Of a stretch of 47,713 nucleotides of DNA, positions 8,603 to 46,412 are shown piece by piece. Position numbers and translations under genes: made by a program. The notes beneath the pieces are model-generated. The model was not told the origin of the DNA and searched no databases. It saw nothing but the letters and a program-made list of their open reading frames with translations. This DNA comes from a virus (taxonomy: Duplodnaviria > Heunggongvirae > Uroviricota > Caudoviricetes): IMG/VR virus record IMGVR_UViG_2541047774_000010, one strand, 5' to 3'. Position 1 is the stretch's first letter; every line of letters begins with the position of its first letter.

Positions 8603-8687
8603 TTCTGCCATTCCGGGACGTTACACTGTTCAGGCACCTTATAAAACGGGTGCCGGGCGTGGAAACCCGGAATTCACCAAAGCGCAC

Positions 8688-8711
8688 AACCGCGCTCTTG
8701 CGGTTTTTTTG
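8688..8711 (+). terminator. Intrinsic terminator (tR1-like position)
   Basis: AACCGC-GCTCTT-GCGGTT hairpin followed by T7; it lies inside the track's 8274..9425 ORF, arguing that region is not coding. Confidence 0.45.
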
Positions 8712-8879
8712 TGTCATGAGCAGCATTACGCCCAAATTATGGTGGGGCGTGCAGGGCCAACTTCGGTTGGGCCGGGTTCTTTGGTGACCGGTATTTCCAC
8801 CCCTGTACGTCTCACCACCAATAAGGTCGTGGAAAGCCTTGGTGGTGAGTTATTAAAAATCACCAAAGAGGCTGCCATC

Positions 8880-12482: not shown

Positions 12483-13430
12483 GTGACCGTGAGAGCACTA
12501 CTGACCCCTGAAATTGCCCCGCGTATGGGGATTGTATTGTTCAGGCCAGGTTCAGAGCTGATGCCCCTGTTTATGCAGGGGCGTGTCCTGCTGGAGCCTG
12601 AGCCGGAACGTTATTCATCTTTCGCCAGTGGTGCCGTTCCGGCGGCATCACAACCGCTGGCGGATGATCCTGCCGTTCGGGCCGTGTTCCGCAATGAGGC
12701 AGTGATCCGTCGTGCTGGTGGCGTGGAATGTCTTGAAAGCTGGTTACTTCGTGAAAAGGGCTGTCAGTGGCCTCATTCCGACTGGCACAGCGAGAACATG
12801 ACCACAATGCGGCACGCTCCGGGAGCAATTCGTCTGTGCTGGCACTGCGATAACCAGCTGCGTGACCAGTTCACGGAACGGCTGGAATCAATGGCAACGG
12901 ATAACTGTGCCCGCTGGGTGTTGTCTGTCGTGCGTCGGGATCTCGGTTTTGATGACAGTCACGTTGTGACAATGCCGGAACTGTGCTGGTGGCTGGTTCG
13001 TAATGATTTGGCGGATGCCTTACCGGAAAGTGCAGCCCGTAAGGCACTGAGATTACCGAAGCCTGTTGTGCCATCTGTCACCCGGGAAAGTGACCTTGTG
13101 CCTTCGGTTCCTGCCACCAGCATCATCCAGGATAAAGCGAAAAAGGTGCTGGCGCTGAAAGTGGATCCGGAGTCGCCGGAGTCTTTTATGTTACGCCCCA
13201 AACGTCGCCGCTGGGTTAATGAAAAGTACACGCGCTGGGTTAAGACGCAGCCGTGCGCATGTTGTGGAAAGCCAGCTGATGATCCCCACCACCTGATAGG
13301 CCACGGTCAGGGTGGAATGGGTACAAAAGCGCATGATCTCTTTGTGTTGCCTTTGTGCAGAAAGCATCACGACGAGCTGCATGCGGATACCGTGACATTT
13401 GAAGAGAAGTATGGCTCCCAACTGGAGTAA
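12483..13430 (+). CDS. ydfU: DUF968-family protein, YdfU-like, C-terminally truncated by IS4
   Basis: 315-aa ORF with Cys/His cluster (CACCGKPADDPHHL...CRKHHDELH); the stop TAA at 13428-13430 is supplied by the first bases of IS4; the original last ~20 codons sit after the IS (14854-14917). Confidence 0.75.
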   Translation: MTVRALLTPEIAPRMGIVLFRPGSELMPLFMQGRVLLEPEPERYSSFASGAVPAASQPLADDPAVRAVFRNEAVIRRAGGVECLESWLLREKGCQWPHSDWHSENMTTMRHAPGAIRLCWHCDNQLRDQFTERLESMATDNCARWVLSVVRRDLGFDDSHVVTMPELCWWLVRNDLADALPESAARKALRLPKPVVPSVTRESDLVPSVPATSIIQDKAKKVLALKVDPESPESFMLRPKRRRWVNEKYTRWVKTQPCACCGKPADDPHHLIGHGQGGMGTKAHDLFVLPLCRKHHDELHADTVTFEEKYGSQLE

Positions 13431-14853
13431 TGCCAGTCAGTTAAGCAACTGACTGGCTCTTTTTCGGGGCTGTGGGGTATTTCCAGGGCCTCTCCTTTAC
13501 CACTCTCGGGAAGGCCCTTTCCCTTCTTGTCGGTAATTTCACAAGTTGTCCCATACTTGCAAGATCGTGCATCAGCTCCGGTATACGTCCCGGTGAAGCG
13601 CCCTGCAATGTCATCAGCATTCTCATCACCATTCCGCATGATTCTGAGAAACTCAGTTGATTCGGCCAGTAACCTTTCAGATGTTCCGCCATTTTAATCA
13701 TCTGATATCTCACCAGATTATAAGCCAGTAAGACACCCCACAGCTCTTGCTCCACAAGCTCCGGCTTTTTACTTCTCAGCGTCAGCCTGCTCAGTTGCAT
13801 CGTCTGTTTTATCTCCCTGTATCCCAGTTCGATTTCCCAGCGATGACTGTACAGATCCGCCATTTCTCCTCCGGGGAAGCGCATGGCGTCCGTCATCGAC
13901 GTCAGCAGATGGCAGACTTTTCCTTTGCGCGTCACGGTCAGCAGGCGGGCTGTCACCTCATTTCCCAGTCCCGGCCACTTTTTTCGTGCCTGCGGGCTGG
14001 TTTTCAGCTTCACCAGATGATCGCCTTTACCCAGTTTTCTGATCTCTTCATATTGCGCTCCCTTTCTGAGAGGGATCATCCAGTGGCGGTGTTCTCCCGC
14101 CAGGCTCCAGGCATTTAACAGTCCCAGTGAGTAATAACCTTTGTCCATTAACGTCAGAGTGTTATCGCCGGTTTGTTCTATAAGTTGCTCAGCAAGCTCA
14201 TTTTCGCTGTTCTTCATCGTGCCGAAGGCTGCAGCCGTCAGCAGATGGCTGGTCAGTTCCATCTGGCAGACCATTTTGACCTGCGGGTAGAGCGCCGGGT
14301 TCCCGGCATGTGTCTGGCGGGGGAAGGCTGCATCGTTCTCTGGTGTATCCGGTGTGCGCCAGAACACACCATCGATGGCCAGCAGGGTCAGGCCGCACCA
14401 TTGCGGATGCGGCGTGGCGTTATGCCAGAGCTGCGCTGTTTTCGTGAACACGCGGCGGACAGCCTCACTTCCCAAGCGCTGGCGGGCCTGAATAACGGCA
14501 CTGGGGGCAACGAAGGGGCGATTGCCCGGCAGCATGATGTCCAGGCGATTCACAATCTGGTGAAGAGGTTCTTTACGCTCAAGCGCCATGCCAACAATAC
14601 ACCAGACCATCATTTCGAGGGGAAGACGGCGCTTGCGTAGCGTTACAGTACCTGATTCGGCAAGGCAACGAGAGATGAGTTCGGGGTCGAGGTAATCCCC
14701 CAGAGAAGTCAGTGGGTTACGCAGAGAATCGTAACGGGATACCAAATCAAGGGCCTGTCCAATGTGCATAAAAAAATCCGGAAACGAGTGAGCGTTTCCG
14801 GATTCTTACACAGCCACTGGATCGGTCAACTGATCCTTAACTGATCGGCATTA
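13428..14853 (-). mobile_element. IS4 insertion sequence, complete, with 13-bp target site duplication
   Basis: 1426 bp, the canonical IS4 length; terminal inverted repeats TAATGCCAGTCAGTTAAGC (left) and reverse complement of TAATGCCGATCAGTTAAGG (right); flanking direct repeats CTCCCAACTGGAG at 13415-13427 and 14854-14866. Confidence 0.92.
13441..14769 (-). CDS. insG: IS4 transposase
   Basis: 442-aa ORF matching the IS4 transposase in length and sequence as recalled. Confidence 0.93.
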
Positions 14854-14930
14854 CTCCCAACTGGAGCTGATATTTCGTTTTATCGATCGTGCGCTGGCAA
14901 TTGGCGTACTGGCGTAAGTGGAGAACGAGC

Positions 14931-15683
14931 ATGAACCTTGAAGCCTTACCAAAATATTACTCCCCAAAATCTCCAAAATTGAGTGATGCCGCACCGGCGA
15001 CAGGCTCAGGTGGTTTAACGATTACGGATGTGATGGCTGCGCAGGGGATGGTGCAGTCGAAAGCACCGCTTGGGTTTGCCTTATTCCTGGCAAAAGCTGG
15101 CGTTCAGGATCCTCAGTTTGCGATTGAAGGTCTGCTCAATTACGCGATGGCACTGGATAACCCGACATTGAACAAATTGAGTGAAGAAATCCGGTTACAG
15201 ATCATCCCTTACCTTGTGAGTTTTGCCTTTGCTGATTATTCCAGGTCTGCGGCAAGTAAGGCTCGCTGTGAGCCTTGTGCTGGTACTGGATTTCATAATG
15301 TATTGCGCGAAGTGGTGAAATACTCCAGAAGCGGGGAGTCTGTTATCAAGGAAGAGTGGGTGAAGGAACTATGTCAGCATTGTCATGGTAAGGGAGAAGT
15401 CAGCACAGCGTGCAGAGGGTGTAAGGGTAAAGGTATTGTCCTGGATGAAAAAAGGACCCGGCTTCATGGCGCGCCTGTTTATAAGATTTGTGGGCGTTGC
15501 AATGGAAACCGGTTTAGTCGTTTACCAACGACACTGGCGCGGCGTCATGTCCAGAAGCTGGTACCAGACCTGACTGATTATCAGTGGTACAAAGGATATG
15601 CAGATGTCATTGATAAACTGGTTACAAAGTGCTGGCAGGAAGAAGCATATGCTGAGGTGCAATTAAGAAAAGTGACGAGATAA
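14931..15683 (+). CDS. Late-gene antiterminator Q-like protein (zinc-binding)
   Basis: Start MNLEALPKYY with RBS GTGGAGAA; three CxxCxGxG-type motifs (CEPCAGTGF, CQHCHGKGEV, CRGCKGKG); sits between the nin-like genes and a strong promoter/terminator pair. Confidence 0.6.
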   Translation: MNLEALPKYYSPKSPKLSDAAPATGSGGLTITDVMAAQGMVQSKAPLGFALFLAKAGVQDPQFAIEGLLNYAMALDNPTLNKLSEEIRLQIIPYLVSFAFADYSRSAASKARCEPCAGTGFHNVLREVVKYSRSGESVIKEEWVKELCQHCHGKGEVSTACRGCKGKGIVLDEKRTRLHGAPVYKICGRCNGNRFSRLPTTLARRHVQKLVPDLTDYQWYKGYADVIDKLVTKCWQEEAYAEVQLRKVTR

Positions 15684-15714
15684 ATGATTTTCGCCGAAGA
15701 TGGCGACGTAATGC

Positions 15715-15743
15715 TTGCATTTTTCAAAAAATATGGATAAAAT
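15715..15743 (+). promoter_or_regulatory. Putative late promoter pR'
   Basis: TTGCAT (15715-15720), 17-nt spacer, TAAAAT (15738-15743), about 30 nt downstream of the Q stop. Confidence 0.5.
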
Positions 15744-15790
15744 TTTTTCAACGATGGGCTTTATATACCCGACGTTAAGAAAAAGTAGAA

Positions 15791-15820
15791 AACCCGCTGA
15801 TGAGCGGGTTTTTGTGCTTT
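15791..15820 (+). terminator. Putative tR' intrinsic terminator
   Basis: AACCCGCT-GATG-AGCGGGTT 8-bp stem followed by TTTTGTGCTTT, about 45 nt downstream of the putative pR' -10. Confidence 0.6.
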
Positions 15821-16098
15821 AAATAGGGTAATAGAGATGTTGAATCTCATTCCGGGATTCATGTTTGTTTACTTATTATTTATCGGGTGACTTTGCCTGA
15901 TGTTTAAAATGTTTTCTTCCAGTACTATGTCCCTAGATACAATGAGTCTGCATATTACATTATTAGCAGAGCTATTACGGTCAAAGTACAGCATAAGCTT
16001 TTAAAGCCAATCAACCAGTCATCAAGACAGACGGGGTTATTCATGAAAACTCTCCATGTTTGATTCGATGGGGCCTGAAATTAAAGCTTTAATATAGC

Positions 16099-16311
16099 TC
16101 ATGAAAGGTAAACATTGGCAGCTGAAGGGCCACGCAGACCATTTATCCGGCAAAATTCCACGCGTAATCCGGTGGTAATTTCTTCTGCATCGCGGAGATT
16201 GAGCGCTGAAACATGAAGCTGGACATCGATACGACCATCGGATGGGGTGATAAGACCCTTGCCGCTTTTGCCGTCAAAGGTTTTGACAATTCCTGTCATT
16301 TTACGGGACAA
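16099..16311 (-). CDS. cspF: Cold shock protein paralog, CspF/CspH-like
   Basis: 70 aa [27 protein letters not shown]...[19 protein letters not shown], matching CspF/CspH as recalled. Confidence 0.88.
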
Positions 16312-16611
16312 AAAAATTCCTTAATACTGATAACTGGGCGCACTATACACACGTTCCTGAAGAAAGCTATAGTTTTTTGATGGGGTTGAAGATGGCTGGA
16401 TGTCTAAAATAAACATTGCTTCATATGTTCAACTATGCGTTAATGATTGCGTCGGTTTGAAGAACAGACGATATACGAAGTAGTTTACTAAAGCAGTTCT
16501 CATTTCAGGTGTTATTCACTTATTCCTTCTTTGAGTCTCTCCAATTAAGTACGAAGTCGTTTCTGTTATACAAGCCATTTATGCCGAAAGGCTCAAGTTA
16601 AGGAATGTAGA

Positions 16612-16827
16612 ATGTCAAATAAAATGACTGGTTTAGTAAAATGGTTTAACGCTGATAAAGGTTTTGGCTTTATTTCTCCTGTTGATGGTAGTAAAGATGT
16701 GTTTGTGCATTTTTCTGCGATTCAGAATGATAATTTTCGAACCTTATTTGAAGGTCAAAAGGTTACCTTCTCTGTAGAGAGTGGTGCTAAAGGTCCTGCA
16801 GCAGCAAATGTCATAATTACTGATTAA
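16612..16827 (+). CDS. cspB: Cold shock protein CspB-like
   Basis: 71 aa [38 protein letters not shown], a CspA-family protein matching CspB as recalled. Confidence 0.88.
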
Positions 16828-17108
16828 AATTCATAGTTTGTCTGTATACGATAACGAAGAAGGCTGATGCCTGAGTGGAGATACAGACAGAGTGGTGAAT
16901 ATTGGATCTCTTTAATAAATAGTAAGGAGGTCCAATACATGAAACAATGGCCAGCATATTTGGCAATAACTTAATCAGGAAAAGTATGCTAACCATTGTG
17001 GTGAAGTGCAGGTTTGCTGCATGAATAGTTTTACAGCAGAAGCTAACTGCTGGCATAGCAAAACAAAGTGCGTAAGTGGATGACTCCCACAAAAAGTACC
17101 ACAATATT

Positions 17109-17134
17109 AAACCCGCTCAGGCGGGTTTTTTATT
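17109..17134. terminator. Intrinsic terminator, possibly bidirectional
   Basis: ACCCGC-TCAG-GCGGGT hairpin followed by TTTTTTATT on the plus strand; lies between cspB and the convergent zinc-ribbon gene. Confidence 0.6.
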
Positions 17135-17579: not shown

Positions 17580-17795
17580 ATGAAATCAATGGATAAGTTA
17601 ACAACAGGTATCGCCTATGGCACATCGGCTGGTAATGCTGGTTTCTGGGCATTGCAGTTACTCGATAAAGTAACTCCGTCACAGTGGGCTGCAATCGGTG
17701 TGCTGGGTAGTCTGGTTTTTGGCCTGCTGACGTATCTGACAAACCTTTATTTCAAGATTAAAGAAGACAGGCGTAAGGTTGCGAGAAGAGAGTAA
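17580..17795 (+). CDS. Holin, EssD/EssQ-like
   Basis: 71 aa [26 protein letters not shown]...[33 protein letters not shown] matches the E. coli prophage holin EssD/EssQ as recalled; RBS GGGGTGAGGA. Confidence 0.88.
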
Positions 17796-17799
17796 TCCA

Positions 17800-18351
17800 A
17801 TGACACAAGACTATGAACTGGTTGTGAAAGGAGTCCGCAATTTTGAGAATAAAGTGGCGGTAACTGTAGCCTTACGGGACAAAAAACGCTTTGACGGTGA
17901 AATTTTTGACCTGGACATCTCGCTGGACCGTGTTGAAGGTGCCGCGCTGGAGTTTTATGAGGCAGCAGCCAGAATGAGAATCAGACAGGTATTCCTGGAT
18001 GTTGCTGCCGGGTTATGTGTAGGGGATGAGCAGTCGCCGGAAAAGCGCCCCATAATTTTAGAGGCGCAGAATGTGTGGATAACCTACAAAGGAAAGCTAC
18101 CGGGAAGAATTACTGGTTCTCTGAAGACGCCACCGACGGCATTGCGGTCAGAAAAAGATGATATTGAATCGCCCATTGAAAAACTGGAGGGCAGCGTCGC
18201 TGATCTGAATAAAAAATTGTCGGTGCTGATCCCTTCTGAAGATGAAAAAAAACGCCGCGATGAGCAGTTTGCGGCGTTTTACGATTATTGCATTGAAGTT
18301 ACTCGCAGGAATTTTGTGAAGATTTTTGAGGAGGGTAAATCTCTTCAGTAA
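17800..18351 (+). CDS. ydfR: YdfR-like protein (N-terminal similarity), with extended C-terminus
   Basis: Start MTQDYELVVKGVRNFENKV matches YdfR as recalled; this ORF is longer (183 aa) than the recalled K-12 YdfR (about 103 aa). Confidence 0.65.
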   Translation: MTQDYELVVKGVRNFENKVAVTVALRDKKRFDGEIFDLDISLDRVEGAALEFYEAAARMRIRQVFLDVAAGLCVGDEQSPEKRPIILEAQNVWITYKGKLPGRITGSLKTPPTALRSEKDDIESPIEKLEGSVADLNKKLSVLIPSEDEKKRRDEQFAAFYDYCIEVTRRNFVKIFEEGKSLQ

Positions 18352-18559
18352 GCTTAATGGCGGACGCTGCAATTAATTCAGGAAGGTCCGCAAGGTCATC
18401 TGTCAGTGGATATGATGAAAAATCGGCGGCAGTTCTGTTAAGAAGCGCTTTAACTAATTCCTTTTCCTTCTCCGGCAACAAGTTGATTAGAGCTACGACT
18501 GCTTGCCTGAGTGCGATTAAATCAGCAAAAGTTTGTTTTGGTAGATTTGTGTAATCCAT
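18299..18559 (-). CDS. Hypothetical protein encoded antisense within the lysis cassette
   Basis: 86 aa from MDYTNLPKQTF with strong RBS GAGGTGA 5 nt upstream; acidic, protein-like composition; overlaps the 3' end of the ydfR-like ORF on the opposite strand. Confidence 0.35.
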   Translation of the reverse strand: MDYTNLPKQTFADLIALRQAVVALINLLPEKEKELVKALLNRTAADFSSYPLTDDLADLPELIAASAIKLTEEIYPPQKSSQNSCE

Positions 18560-18672
18560 AGTCACCTCTGTGTTTATCAGATTGACATCCTCCTCCCGCC
18601 AGTGCCCATCACTGGTGAGGTAAGATTTAACATATCCGGGGATTTGAAGCCGATAAATCCTGATAAATATCC

Positions 18673-19700
<1,028 letters not shown>

Positions 19701-20060
19701 ATTAATATTAAATCGGATTATTTTTAGCGCTGAATGTGAAATTTAAATAAAAAGGACTCTTCCATGAGTCAAAATCCTTGAAATCTTAAGGGTAAGATAA
19801 AAGGTCATTAGACAGAATGACACGTTTTATTAATAAATAAAGCTATTGTTTCATTCGTGTGTTTTTCTTTACAAAAGTAATCCTTGCTATGGTTGGTTAA
19901 TCATGCGTTAATGGTGTTCTGGTTTGTTACAAAATTATCTGAAGCAGTCATTGTTATAATTTTATTATTTGTACCTCTTGAGATCTCCTTGTTGGTTTTT
20001 CTCTCTGATATTTTTTTTCGGACCATTCTGCCCAAGGGCTAACTTCTTCAAAAGGTAATA

Positions 20061-20276
20061 ATGATGTCTAACAAAATGACTGGTTTAGTGAAATGGTTTA
20101 ACCCTGAAAAAGGTTTTGGTTTCATCACGCCGAAAGATGGTAGCAAAGATGTGTTTGTCCATTTCTCAGTTATTCAGAGCAACGATTTCAAAACGTTAAC
20201 TGAGAATCAGGAAGTCGAATTTGGTATTGAGAACGGACCTAAAGGCCCCGCGGCTGTTCATGTAGTGGCACTTTGA
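20061..20276 (+). CDS. cspI: Cold shock protein CspI-like
   Basis: [70 protein letters not shown] matches CspI as recalled. Confidence 0.88.
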
Positions 20277-20480
20277 GGTAGAAAATATTACAAACCATAT
20301 TCACTTTAGATGCCCGTGTTGCCATGGTTCTCAGTATAGAACATCATCTTTTGATGTTTCTGACAGGAATCCTTTCGGGGCAAAATGTATCTTTTGTAAA
20401 TCAATGATGATTACATTTGATAATATTTCACAATACTTAAATGTTAGCCGTCTGTCGTTAGATTTAAGAAAGTGAAAATG

Positions 20481-45837: not shown

Positions 45838-46412
45838 TGGCATTCAGAATGAGTGAACAACCACGGACCATAAAAATTTATAATCTGCTGGCCGGAACTA
45901 ATGAATTTATTGGTGAAGGTGACGCATATATTCCGCCTCATACAGGTCTGCCAGCAAACAGTACCGATATTGCACCGCCAGATATTCCGGCAGGCTTCGT
46001 GGCTGTTTTCAACAGTGATGAGGCATCGTGGCATCTCGTTGAAGACCATCGGGGTAAAACGGTTTATGACGTAGCGTCAGGGGACGCGTTATTTATTTCT
46101 GAACTCGGTCCGTTACCGGAAAATGTTACCTGGTTATCGCCGGAAGGGGAGTTTCAGAAGTGGAACGGCACAGCCTGGGTGAAAGATGCAGAAGCAGAAA
46201 AACTGTTCCGGATCCGGGAGGCGGAAGAAACAAAAAACAGCCTGATGCAGGTAGCCAGTGAGCATATTGCGCCGCTTCAGGATGCTGCAGATCTGGAAAT
46301 TGCAACGGAGGAAGAAATCTCGTTGCTGGAAGCATGGAAAAAGTATCGGGTATTGCTGAACCGTGTTGATACGTCAACTGCACAGGATATTGAATGGCCA
46401 GCACTGCCGTAG
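45837..46412 (+). CDS. tfa: Tail fibre assembly protein Tfa
   Basis: 191 aa, translationally coupled to stf (TAATG); typical Tfa N-terminus ([36 protein letters not shown]). Confidence 0.85.

Follow-up and report, generated by a model that had tools for sequence, protein, structure and literature searches.

A probable late-gene control cassette related to lambda and P22 pR'-qut-tR' next to the Q gene of a Qin/SfV-type lambdoid prophage

Gene organization of the locus

The window analysed here is a stretch of 47,713 nucleotides from a virus of the class Caudoviricetes (IMG/VR record IMGVR_UViG_2541047774_000010). The features discussed below are collected in Table 1. At the center of the locus is the gene of a Q antiterminator, annotated as ydfT antitermination protein in Escherichia coli CFT073 and K-12. 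The promoter and terminator elements lie 32-130 nt 3' of the Q stop codon (15681-15683), with the -35 hexamer beginning at 32 nt, in agreement with an earlier sequence-only reading that had placed a late promoter directly after Q. Beyond the terminator, the convergent cspF-ynfS unit, in which ynfS is a small-protein gene (PMC6001520), is followed by cspB, a second strong terminator and a lysis cassette. The homologue of the second terminator in K-12 coincides with a Term-seq 3' end on the opposite strand, at 1641060 (+) (PMC7815308). Long open reading frames on the plus strand continue to ~46.4 kb; judged by size and order only, they would encode terminase, portal, head and tail proteins.

On the other side of Q, an IS4 element is inserted in the 3' end of a DUF968 gene, which is truncated, 64 bp before the Q start. 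Apart from lacking the IS4, the corresponding locus of E. coli CFT073 is 99.9% identical. DNA matching the Q/promoter region is present in 2,473 of the 5,426 complete E. coli genomes (~46%), K-12 included. As a side observation, two cspA-type thermoregulator 5' untranslated regions (RF01766) at 16451-16890 and 19917-20322 belong to cspB-like and cspI-like cold-shock genes situated inside the late region, with cspF on the opposite strand.

Table 1. Features of the locus, in window coordinates
Feature	Position	Strand	Remarks
IS4 target duplication, 13 bp, CTCCCAACTGGAG	13415-13427 and 14854-14866
IS4 element	13428-14853		442-aa transposase on the minus strand; imperfect terminal inverted repeats
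Terminator-like hairpin in IS4 end	13432-13457	+
Q antiterminator gene	14931-15683	+	250 aa; ydfT/quuQ type, lambda Q family
-35 hexamer TTGCAT	15715-15720	+	aligns with TTGACT of lambda and P22; nearly invariant in 84 clade loci
Spacer, 17 bp, TTTTCAAAAAATATGGA	15721-15737	+	candidate Q-binding element
-10 hexamer TAAAAT	15738-15743	+	aligns with TAAATT of lambda and P22
Discriminator TTTTTC	15744-15749	+
Predicted transcription start (15750) and sigma-dependent pause element, AACGAT then GGG	15750-15758	+
Predicted 5'-terminal hairpin of the short RNA (AACG.UGGG ... CCCG.CGUU)	15750-15776	+	minimum-energy fold
Predicted pR'-tR' transcript, ~68 nt	15750-15817	+	3' end by homology to K-12 Term-seq; 5' end inferred from P22/lambda starts
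A-rich stretch	precedes stem	+
Terminator tR' (intrinsic)	15789-15813	+	10-bp stem, GATG loop, T5; reads as a terminator on the minus strand too
Stem, 5' arm, AAAACCCGCT	15789-15798	+
Loop GATG	15799-15802	+
Stem, 3' arm, AGCGGGTTTT	15803-15812	+
T-run	15809-15813	+
cspF-ynfS unit	15955-16311	-	convergent, toward the tR' hairpin; CFT073 and K-12 annotation; CSD domain
Second intrinsic terminator, AAACCCGCTCAGGCGGGTTTTTT	17109-17128	+	cspB-holin interval; strong, bidirectional-looking; faces ynfU on the other strand
Lysis cassette: P21-type holin, DUF1327 protein, lysozyme, Rz-like protein	17580-19700	+	Pfam; CFT073 RefSeq annotation

The Q protein

The Q protein matches Pfam family PF03589, to which the Q-lambda family corresponds (PMC9388147), with 179 bits (cutoff 26.7), and also gives a DnaJ-type CXXCXGXG match. 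Both of its halves align with the solved Q-lambda chain 7UBM_Q (E 9e-38). The N-terminal ~44 residues, which in Q-lambda form the RNA-exit "torus" (PMC9388147), are well conserved. Over 96% of its length, the protein shares 34.5% of its residues with lambda Q and 34.1% with P22 gp23. It is, as the sequence-only reading had it, a Q protein, and specifically a full-length member of the lambda Q family.

The window Q is 43 aa longer than lambda Q and contains four CXXC motifs, compared to two in lambda Q, and three of the four have the complete CXXCXGXG form; its zinc "arm" thus appears enlarged, which suggests a larger DNA- and sigma-contacting arm. The region of the CXXC motifs (15282-15510, Q residues ~118-193) resembles a doubling of a DnaJ-like zinc finger, whereas lambda Q has a single zinc ribbon. 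The Q-binding element of lambda sits between the -35 and -10 hexamers of the promoter. It is a 13-bp site embedded in the promoter (PMC9388147). The spacer in the window shows strong conservation in its clade, and clades that carry other Q proteins have different spacers; compared with lambda, 11 of its 17 positions are the same and six differ. We presume it to be the candidate Q-binding element. That the arm of this Q type has four CXXC motifs rather than two, and that its binding element is a candidate only, count against a pR'/tR' arrangement of the lambda kind.

The late promoter and the pause element

Scored against the consensus, the -35 hexamer matches at 3 of 6 positions and the -10 hexamer at 5 of 6, a total of 8/12. 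Because 161 sites on the plus strand of the window score at least 8/12, the hexamers alone are no more than expected by chance, and the TTGCAT/TAAAAT pair is not among the output of a consensus promoter scan. This, too, is a point against the pR'/tR' reading. The sequence-only reading had described the promoter as TTGCAT-N17-TAAAAT, with 45 nt between the end of the -10 hexamer and the stem of the hairpin; hexamers, coordinates, spacing and distance are all correct, but the term "near-consensus" was an overstatement, and the argument from it is the weakest part of that case.

Downstream of their Q genes, lambda and P22 both carry TTGACT-N17-TAAATT-TGACTC-AACGATGG(G/A), and the putative promoter of the window is colinear with pR' of both phages, aligning with them free of gaps from the -35 hexamer through the pause element AACGATGG(G). 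The window 9-mer AACGATGGG begins 6 bp past the -10 hexamer; both the 9-mer and this offset are identical to those of lambda, and the P22 counterpart is AACGATGGA. Its first six bases, AACGAT, are the sigma-dependent pause element of lambda. The window contains a single match to a composite pattern describing the lambda pR' architecture, TTG-N20-TANNNT-N6-AACGATGGG, and 100 shuffled sequences contain no match. It is this composite architecture, and not the hexamers, that exceeds chance. The decisive and strongest evidence for the cassette is the predicted pause element, AACGATGGG, spaced from the -10 hexamer just as in lambda and P22; it went unnoticed in the sequence-only reading. Transcription is predicted to start at 15750, by analogy with P22, in which the annotated +1 is the first A of AACGAT. 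The order of the elements is that described for cassettes of this family, namely, Q gene, pR', pause element, terminator and late genes (PMC9388147).

One feature shared by lambda and P22, a -35-like TTGACT adjoining the pause element, is absent from the window, which has TTTTTC at this place, and from its relatives, which have TTTCCC or TCTCCT. In lambda, this motif helps to position sigma region 4, and its absence argues against the pR'/tR' reading. Other Q-lambda clades also lack a TTGACT adjoining the pause element, so that this motif is not required for membership in the family.

The terminator and the predicted short RNA

Within 12 kb, 22 terminator-like sites are seen compared to 11.5 expected, and the site at 15789-15813 is among the best. 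The sequence-only reading had noted an 8-bp GC-rich hairpin with a U-tract. The hairpin and the T-run are indeed there, but the stem consists of 10 pairs, with a G+C-rich core of 6 bp (CCCGCU/AGCGGG) that includes 5 G:C pairs. A predicted RNA of 65 nt folds with -23.1 kcal/mol (z = -4.95), and none of 200 shuffled sequences was as stable. The family of the Q protein, the alignment with lambda and P22, the conservation across 214 loci and the K-12 3' end described below make the prediction of a short terminated RNA a reasonable one. The RNA, which the sequence-only reading expected to be very short and 6S-like, would have a length of ~68 nt; in size, it would be closer to the 59-nt RNA of P22 than to the 194-nt 6S RNA of lambda. 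Searches of 15700-15820 against Rfam returned the Phe, Leu and Trp leaders and STnc370 with 17-26 bits, against thresholds of 41-55; these hits reflect the shape of the terminator only and were dismissed.

The tR' hairpin is bordered by an A-run and a T-run, and its minus-strand fold has a T-rich tail. The convergent cspF-ynfS transcripts probably end at it as well. The terminator is retained in relatives that have no convergent genes, which makes termination at tR' the primary role of the hairpin.

The first 4-5 transcribed bases of the predicted RNA can pair with positions ~+22 to +27. Such a 5' hairpin is predicted for 13 of the 16 clade representatives of the lambda Q family, with compensatory cases in which AACGA/UCGUU is replaced by AAUGA/UCAUU (L213), AAAG/CUUU (L035) or AAGGA/UUCUU (Yersinia phage YeP1); the loci tied to this observation are L213, L035, L097 and L101. 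As a shared feature, the 5' hairpin is weak: in shuffle tests of single sequences, p ranged from 0.01 to 0.5, and many uncompensated changes occur at positions 3-4 of the pause hexamer in the mEp460_ev081 clade. For these reasons, we treat it as a side observation only.

Conservation across related loci

A first set of related loci comprised 80 IMG/VR loci with Q proteins 96-100% identical to that of the window. The extended set added phages with Q proteins 32-42% identical and their IMG/VR relatives, for a total of 214 loci and 108 unique transcripts. Promoter, spacer and pause element are conserved in this set too. All the upstream elements (-35 hexamer, spacer, -10 hexamer and pause element) are kept in the 80 loci, in which they are followed by several different hairpins. 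Position-wise conservation was tabulated for a clade of 84 loci; in the mEp460_ev081 clade, the anchor pattern matched one locus only. The 84-locus table shows conservation of the spacer and of AACGATGGGCTTT and variation in the discriminator and the linker; within the pause hexamer, A2 never changes, and T6 is kept by 83 of the 84 loci. The uncommon pause variants AAAGAT and AACAAT retain both A2 and T6. This pattern is the one to be expected of functional elements.

Nearly all of the 108 unique transcripts have, downstream of the pause element, a hairpin with a T-tract, the stem beginning between +31 and +45. The 214 loci contain 44 distinct hairpin sequences, with paired changes that preserve the stem, for example, CUCGC/GCGGG to CUCAC/GUGGG. 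The hairpins were detected sequence by sequence, because a MAFFT alignment misplaced those with different loop lengths: covariation analysis of 22 diverse transcripts with MAFFT and RNAalifold yielded a meaningless 4-pair consensus and was discarded. A minority of the related loci have a long, lambda-type 6S region in place of the short hairpin, and the lambda-type continuation past the pause element is limited to the recombinant L023 and the SF6, L218 and L198 types. L023 (2285-2400) is a natural recombinant in which Q, the promoter and the spacer of the Qin/SfV type are joined to the lambda 6S region, with the crossover exactly at the shared AACGATGGG.

The cassette elements of the window are 100% identical over 201 nt to those of the sequenced phage 2H10. 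In the records of SfV and Ayreon, the hairpin is annotated as a putative rho-independent terminator. At a greater distance, the lambda-family Q genes of Proteus, Yersinia, Providencia, Pantoea and Edwardsiella phages are associated with a -10 hexamer, 5-7 bp and a -10-like hexamer followed by GG, and a convincing terminator lies nearby in these phages except in Edwardsiella Edno5 and Pantoea AH07.

In the mEp460_ev081 clade (L106-L185), near-identical prophages vary at positions 3-4 of the pause hexamer (AACGAT, AATGAT, AAAGAT, AACAAT, AATAAT and AACTAT), and one locus has GATGAT; the constant positions are those to be expected of a -10-like element recognized by sigma. The search pattern used to list this clade fixed positions 2 and 6, with A or C at position 5, so that the constancy of positions 2, 5 and 6 among its members is no independent proof of conservation; the unbiased tabulation is that of the 84 loci, which form a different clade. 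In L088 and L097 (mEp460_ev081 type and Yersinia phage YeP1), tRNA genes lie directly 3' of tR'; Shiga-toxin phages likewise have tRNA genes after tR'.

The K-12 Qin copy

The quuQ(ydfT)-cspF region of the K-12 prophage Qin is 91.8% identical to the window over 1.2 kb, with the same promoter, pause element and hairpin and the same gene order, that is, Q, ynfS and cspF on the opposite strand, cspB, ynfU, holin and lysozyme. It differs from the window in having four Ts rather than five after the stem and no IS4 by Q, and in being a cryptic prophage that lacks the structural genes of the window.

Term-seq of K-12 places a 3' end of the "orphan" class at 1642356 (-) (Adams et al. 2021, PMC7815308, Supplementary file 1), with 103,591 reads in LB at OD 0.4 and 55,368 in another condition; the sequence at this end is ...GCGGGUUUUGUGC, with the flank TACCCGACGTTAAGAAAAAGTAGAAAACCCGCTGATGAGCGGGTTTTGTG[C]. 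The end is on the Q strand and belongs to the K-12 counterpart of the window hairpin, 8 nt past its G+C stem. With the K-12 start predicted at 1642422 (-), as computed from the ynfS coordinates (PMC6001520) and locus L006, the RNA would be 67 nt long, compared to 68 nt for 15750-15817 in the window. The pR'/tR' arrangement that the sequence-only reading had recognized is accordingly supported from two sides, by homology to lambda and P22 and by a mapped 3' end at the homologous terminator. What can be held against this support is that the K-12 3' end could stem in part from transcripts reading through from the Q gene, and that Qin, the bearer of the same cassette, is cryptic.

A second "orphan" 3' end in K-12, at 1642188 (-), is represented by 87,904 reads in one condition (PMC7815308). 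Its homologue in the window is located at ~15940-15980 (+), ~168 nt past tR', after an A+T-rich hairpin and antisense to ynfS. This 3' end implies that some transcription passes tR' or begins after it. In the literature text on quuQ/ydfT, we found only the listing of ynfS as a small protein and no paper naming the K-12 RNA or its promoter.

Comparison with named systems

The lambda pR'-qut-tR' system shares with the window the Q family, a promoter located directly after Q, the 17-bp spacer, the 6-bp discriminator, AACGATGGG at +1 to +9 and an intrinsic terminator ahead of the late genes. The differences include the -35 hexamer, which is closer to consensus in lambda (TTGACT) than in the window (TTGCAT), the TTGACT beside the pause element, which the window lacks, and the length of the RNA. 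Lambda 6S RNA is 194 nt long, compared to ~68 nt predicted for the window, and the lambda late transcript has no terminator in its first 110 nt. Similarity between the window and lambda 6S ends after AACGATGGG, at about +10, save for a short CGTT.

P22 is closer in the length of the RNA. Its P late/gene 23/tR' system has the same architecture and a short terminated RNA, and the gene 23 protein is 34% identical to the window Q. In the P22 record, annotations for P late, the qut site, the +1 base and tR' put the length of the RNA at 59 nt. The hairpin and spacer sequences of P22 are different, and no convergent gene shares its terminator.

A possible parallel to the predicted window RNA is StxS (EcOnc15), a constitutive short RNA made in lysogens from pR', the antiterminated late promoter of Stx1 and Stx2a phages (PMC7547250). 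RNase E generates StxS, 74 nt long, from a 258-nt transcript; StxS binds Hfq and has defined targets (PMC7547250). No sequence similarity between StxS and the window was found, and no Rfam family matched the region.

Interpretation and alternatives

We interpret the segment as a late-gene control cassette, homologous to pR'-qut-tR' of lambda and P22, that belongs to a lambdoid prophage of the Qin/SfV type, and put the probability of this reading at about 0.85. Directly observed are the sequence elements with their homology and conservation, the family of the Q protein and the in vivo 3' end at the terminator copy in K-12. The start site, the pause, the Q-binding site and the Q-dependent read-through are inferred from the homologous systems.

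A different account takes the hairpin to be, in the main, the terminator of the cspF-ynfS unit and of the Q mRNA, and the "promoter" to be a chance match. The A-run and T-run that border a hairpin able to fold as a terminator on the minus strand as well, the direction of cspF-ynfS toward it and the hexamers that match at only 8/12 would all fit. Yet SfV, Ayreon, the mEp460_ev081 clade and the Proteus and Yersinia phages have no convergent csp gene and nevertheless keep a terminator, spaced alike from the same promoter and pause element; the homology to lambda and P22 in AACGATGGG goes beyond chance; and the 3' end mapped in K-12 is on the Q strand. On these comparative grounds, a chance promoter with a hairpin that serves cspF only is rejected, and we consider this account very improbable even in its milder form. 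A more serious alternative concerns not the origin of the cassette but its operation: it could be homologous to pR'/tR' and still be no working switch in this prophage, either because IS4 cuts Q off or because the prophage is otherwise defective, so that the element yields only the terminated short RNA, or nothing. The IS4, with its 13-bp duplication 64 bp upstream of Q, is absent from the 99.9% identical CFT073 locus, one of its ends contains a terminator-like hairpin on the Q strand, and the same cassette persists in the cryptic Qin of K-12. Since IS4 separates Q from upstream early transcription, Q is possibly not supplied; the insertion may be polar on Q expression and limit the supply. 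All the elements of the cassette are intact and identical to those of phage 2H10, though, the late region looks complete, with plus-strand open reading frames to ~46.4 kb, and Q could still be expressed from antiterminated early transcripts or from a promoter directed outward from the IS. We regard the loss of the switch as rather unlikely, while giving it real weight.

The short RNA itself might, like StxS, have a further role in the host, acting in trans or as a sponge RNA. Its layout is like that of Hfq-binding RNAs in that a 5' hairpin is joined to a U-tailed terminator by an A-rich single-stranded linker, AAGAAAAAGUAGAAAA; the 3' end is abundant in K-12; and an RNA named cspF.ydfT.IGR, its strand not stated, contributes 70 fragments to Hfq RIL-seq chimeras and has 2 partners. 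There is, besides, the precedent of StxS, and antiterminated promoters have been proposed as a source of small RNAs (PMC7547250). On the other side, a classifier based on RIL-seq scores this RNA at 0.0024 as an sRNA and at -0.5 as "second in chimera", a profile that is target-like and not regulator-like (again with the strand not stated), the linker and the hairpin are the least conserved parts among the relatives, and there is no Rfam family. A role of this kind thus seems improbable. Equally long odds apply to the broader proposal that the ~68-nt RNA of the Qin/SfV type is an abundant, constitutive Hfq sponge or regulator active in the host, and that the 5' hairpin (+1 to +5 with ~+22 to +27) has a conserved function in the late transcripts of the lambda family. 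If this proposal were true, the hairpin could, for example, stabilize the 5' end of these transcripts.

Under the pR'/tR' reading, the cassette would work as follows. Host RNA polymerase with sigma-70 would start at ~15750 from TTGCAT-N17-TAAAAT. The first six transcribed bases, AACGAT (then GGG), are -10-like, and retained sigma would re-engage with them, resulting in a pause at about +16/+17. Without Q, the polymerase would resume and terminate at the tR' hairpin, such that the ~68-nt RNA would be made constitutively. When present, Q would bind the promoter spacer and load onto the paused complex, converting the polymerase into a terminator-resistant form. The Q-modified polymerase would then pass tR', the region antisense to cspF-ynfS, cspB and the second terminator, and the lysis genes from 17580 onward, together with ~27 kb of apparent virion genes, would be transcribed.

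On this reading, the annotation of Q is confirmed, and the likely start of the late operon is fixed in a very common family of E. coli prophages. The abundant "orphan" Term-seq 3' end of K-12 would be explained as tR' of Qin. The window also offers a compact natural variant of pR', with a short RNA, no TTGACT beside the pause and a doubled zinc-finger arm, that could be used for studying Q loading. The current understanding of Q antitermination is unchanged.

Other RNA elements of the window

Outside the late control region, several matches to Rfam families were observed. In the early region, isrK (67.9 bits) and C4 antisense RNA (83.6 bits) adjoin each other at 8634-8710 and 8735-8822, both above the Rfam threshold. 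The early region of CFT073 was of no help in interpreting these matches; the pair resembles an immunity or antirepressor module of the P1/P7 or Gifsy type. Near the tail-fibre end of the prophage, at 46180-46378, there is a match to IS009 RNA with 221.5 bits.
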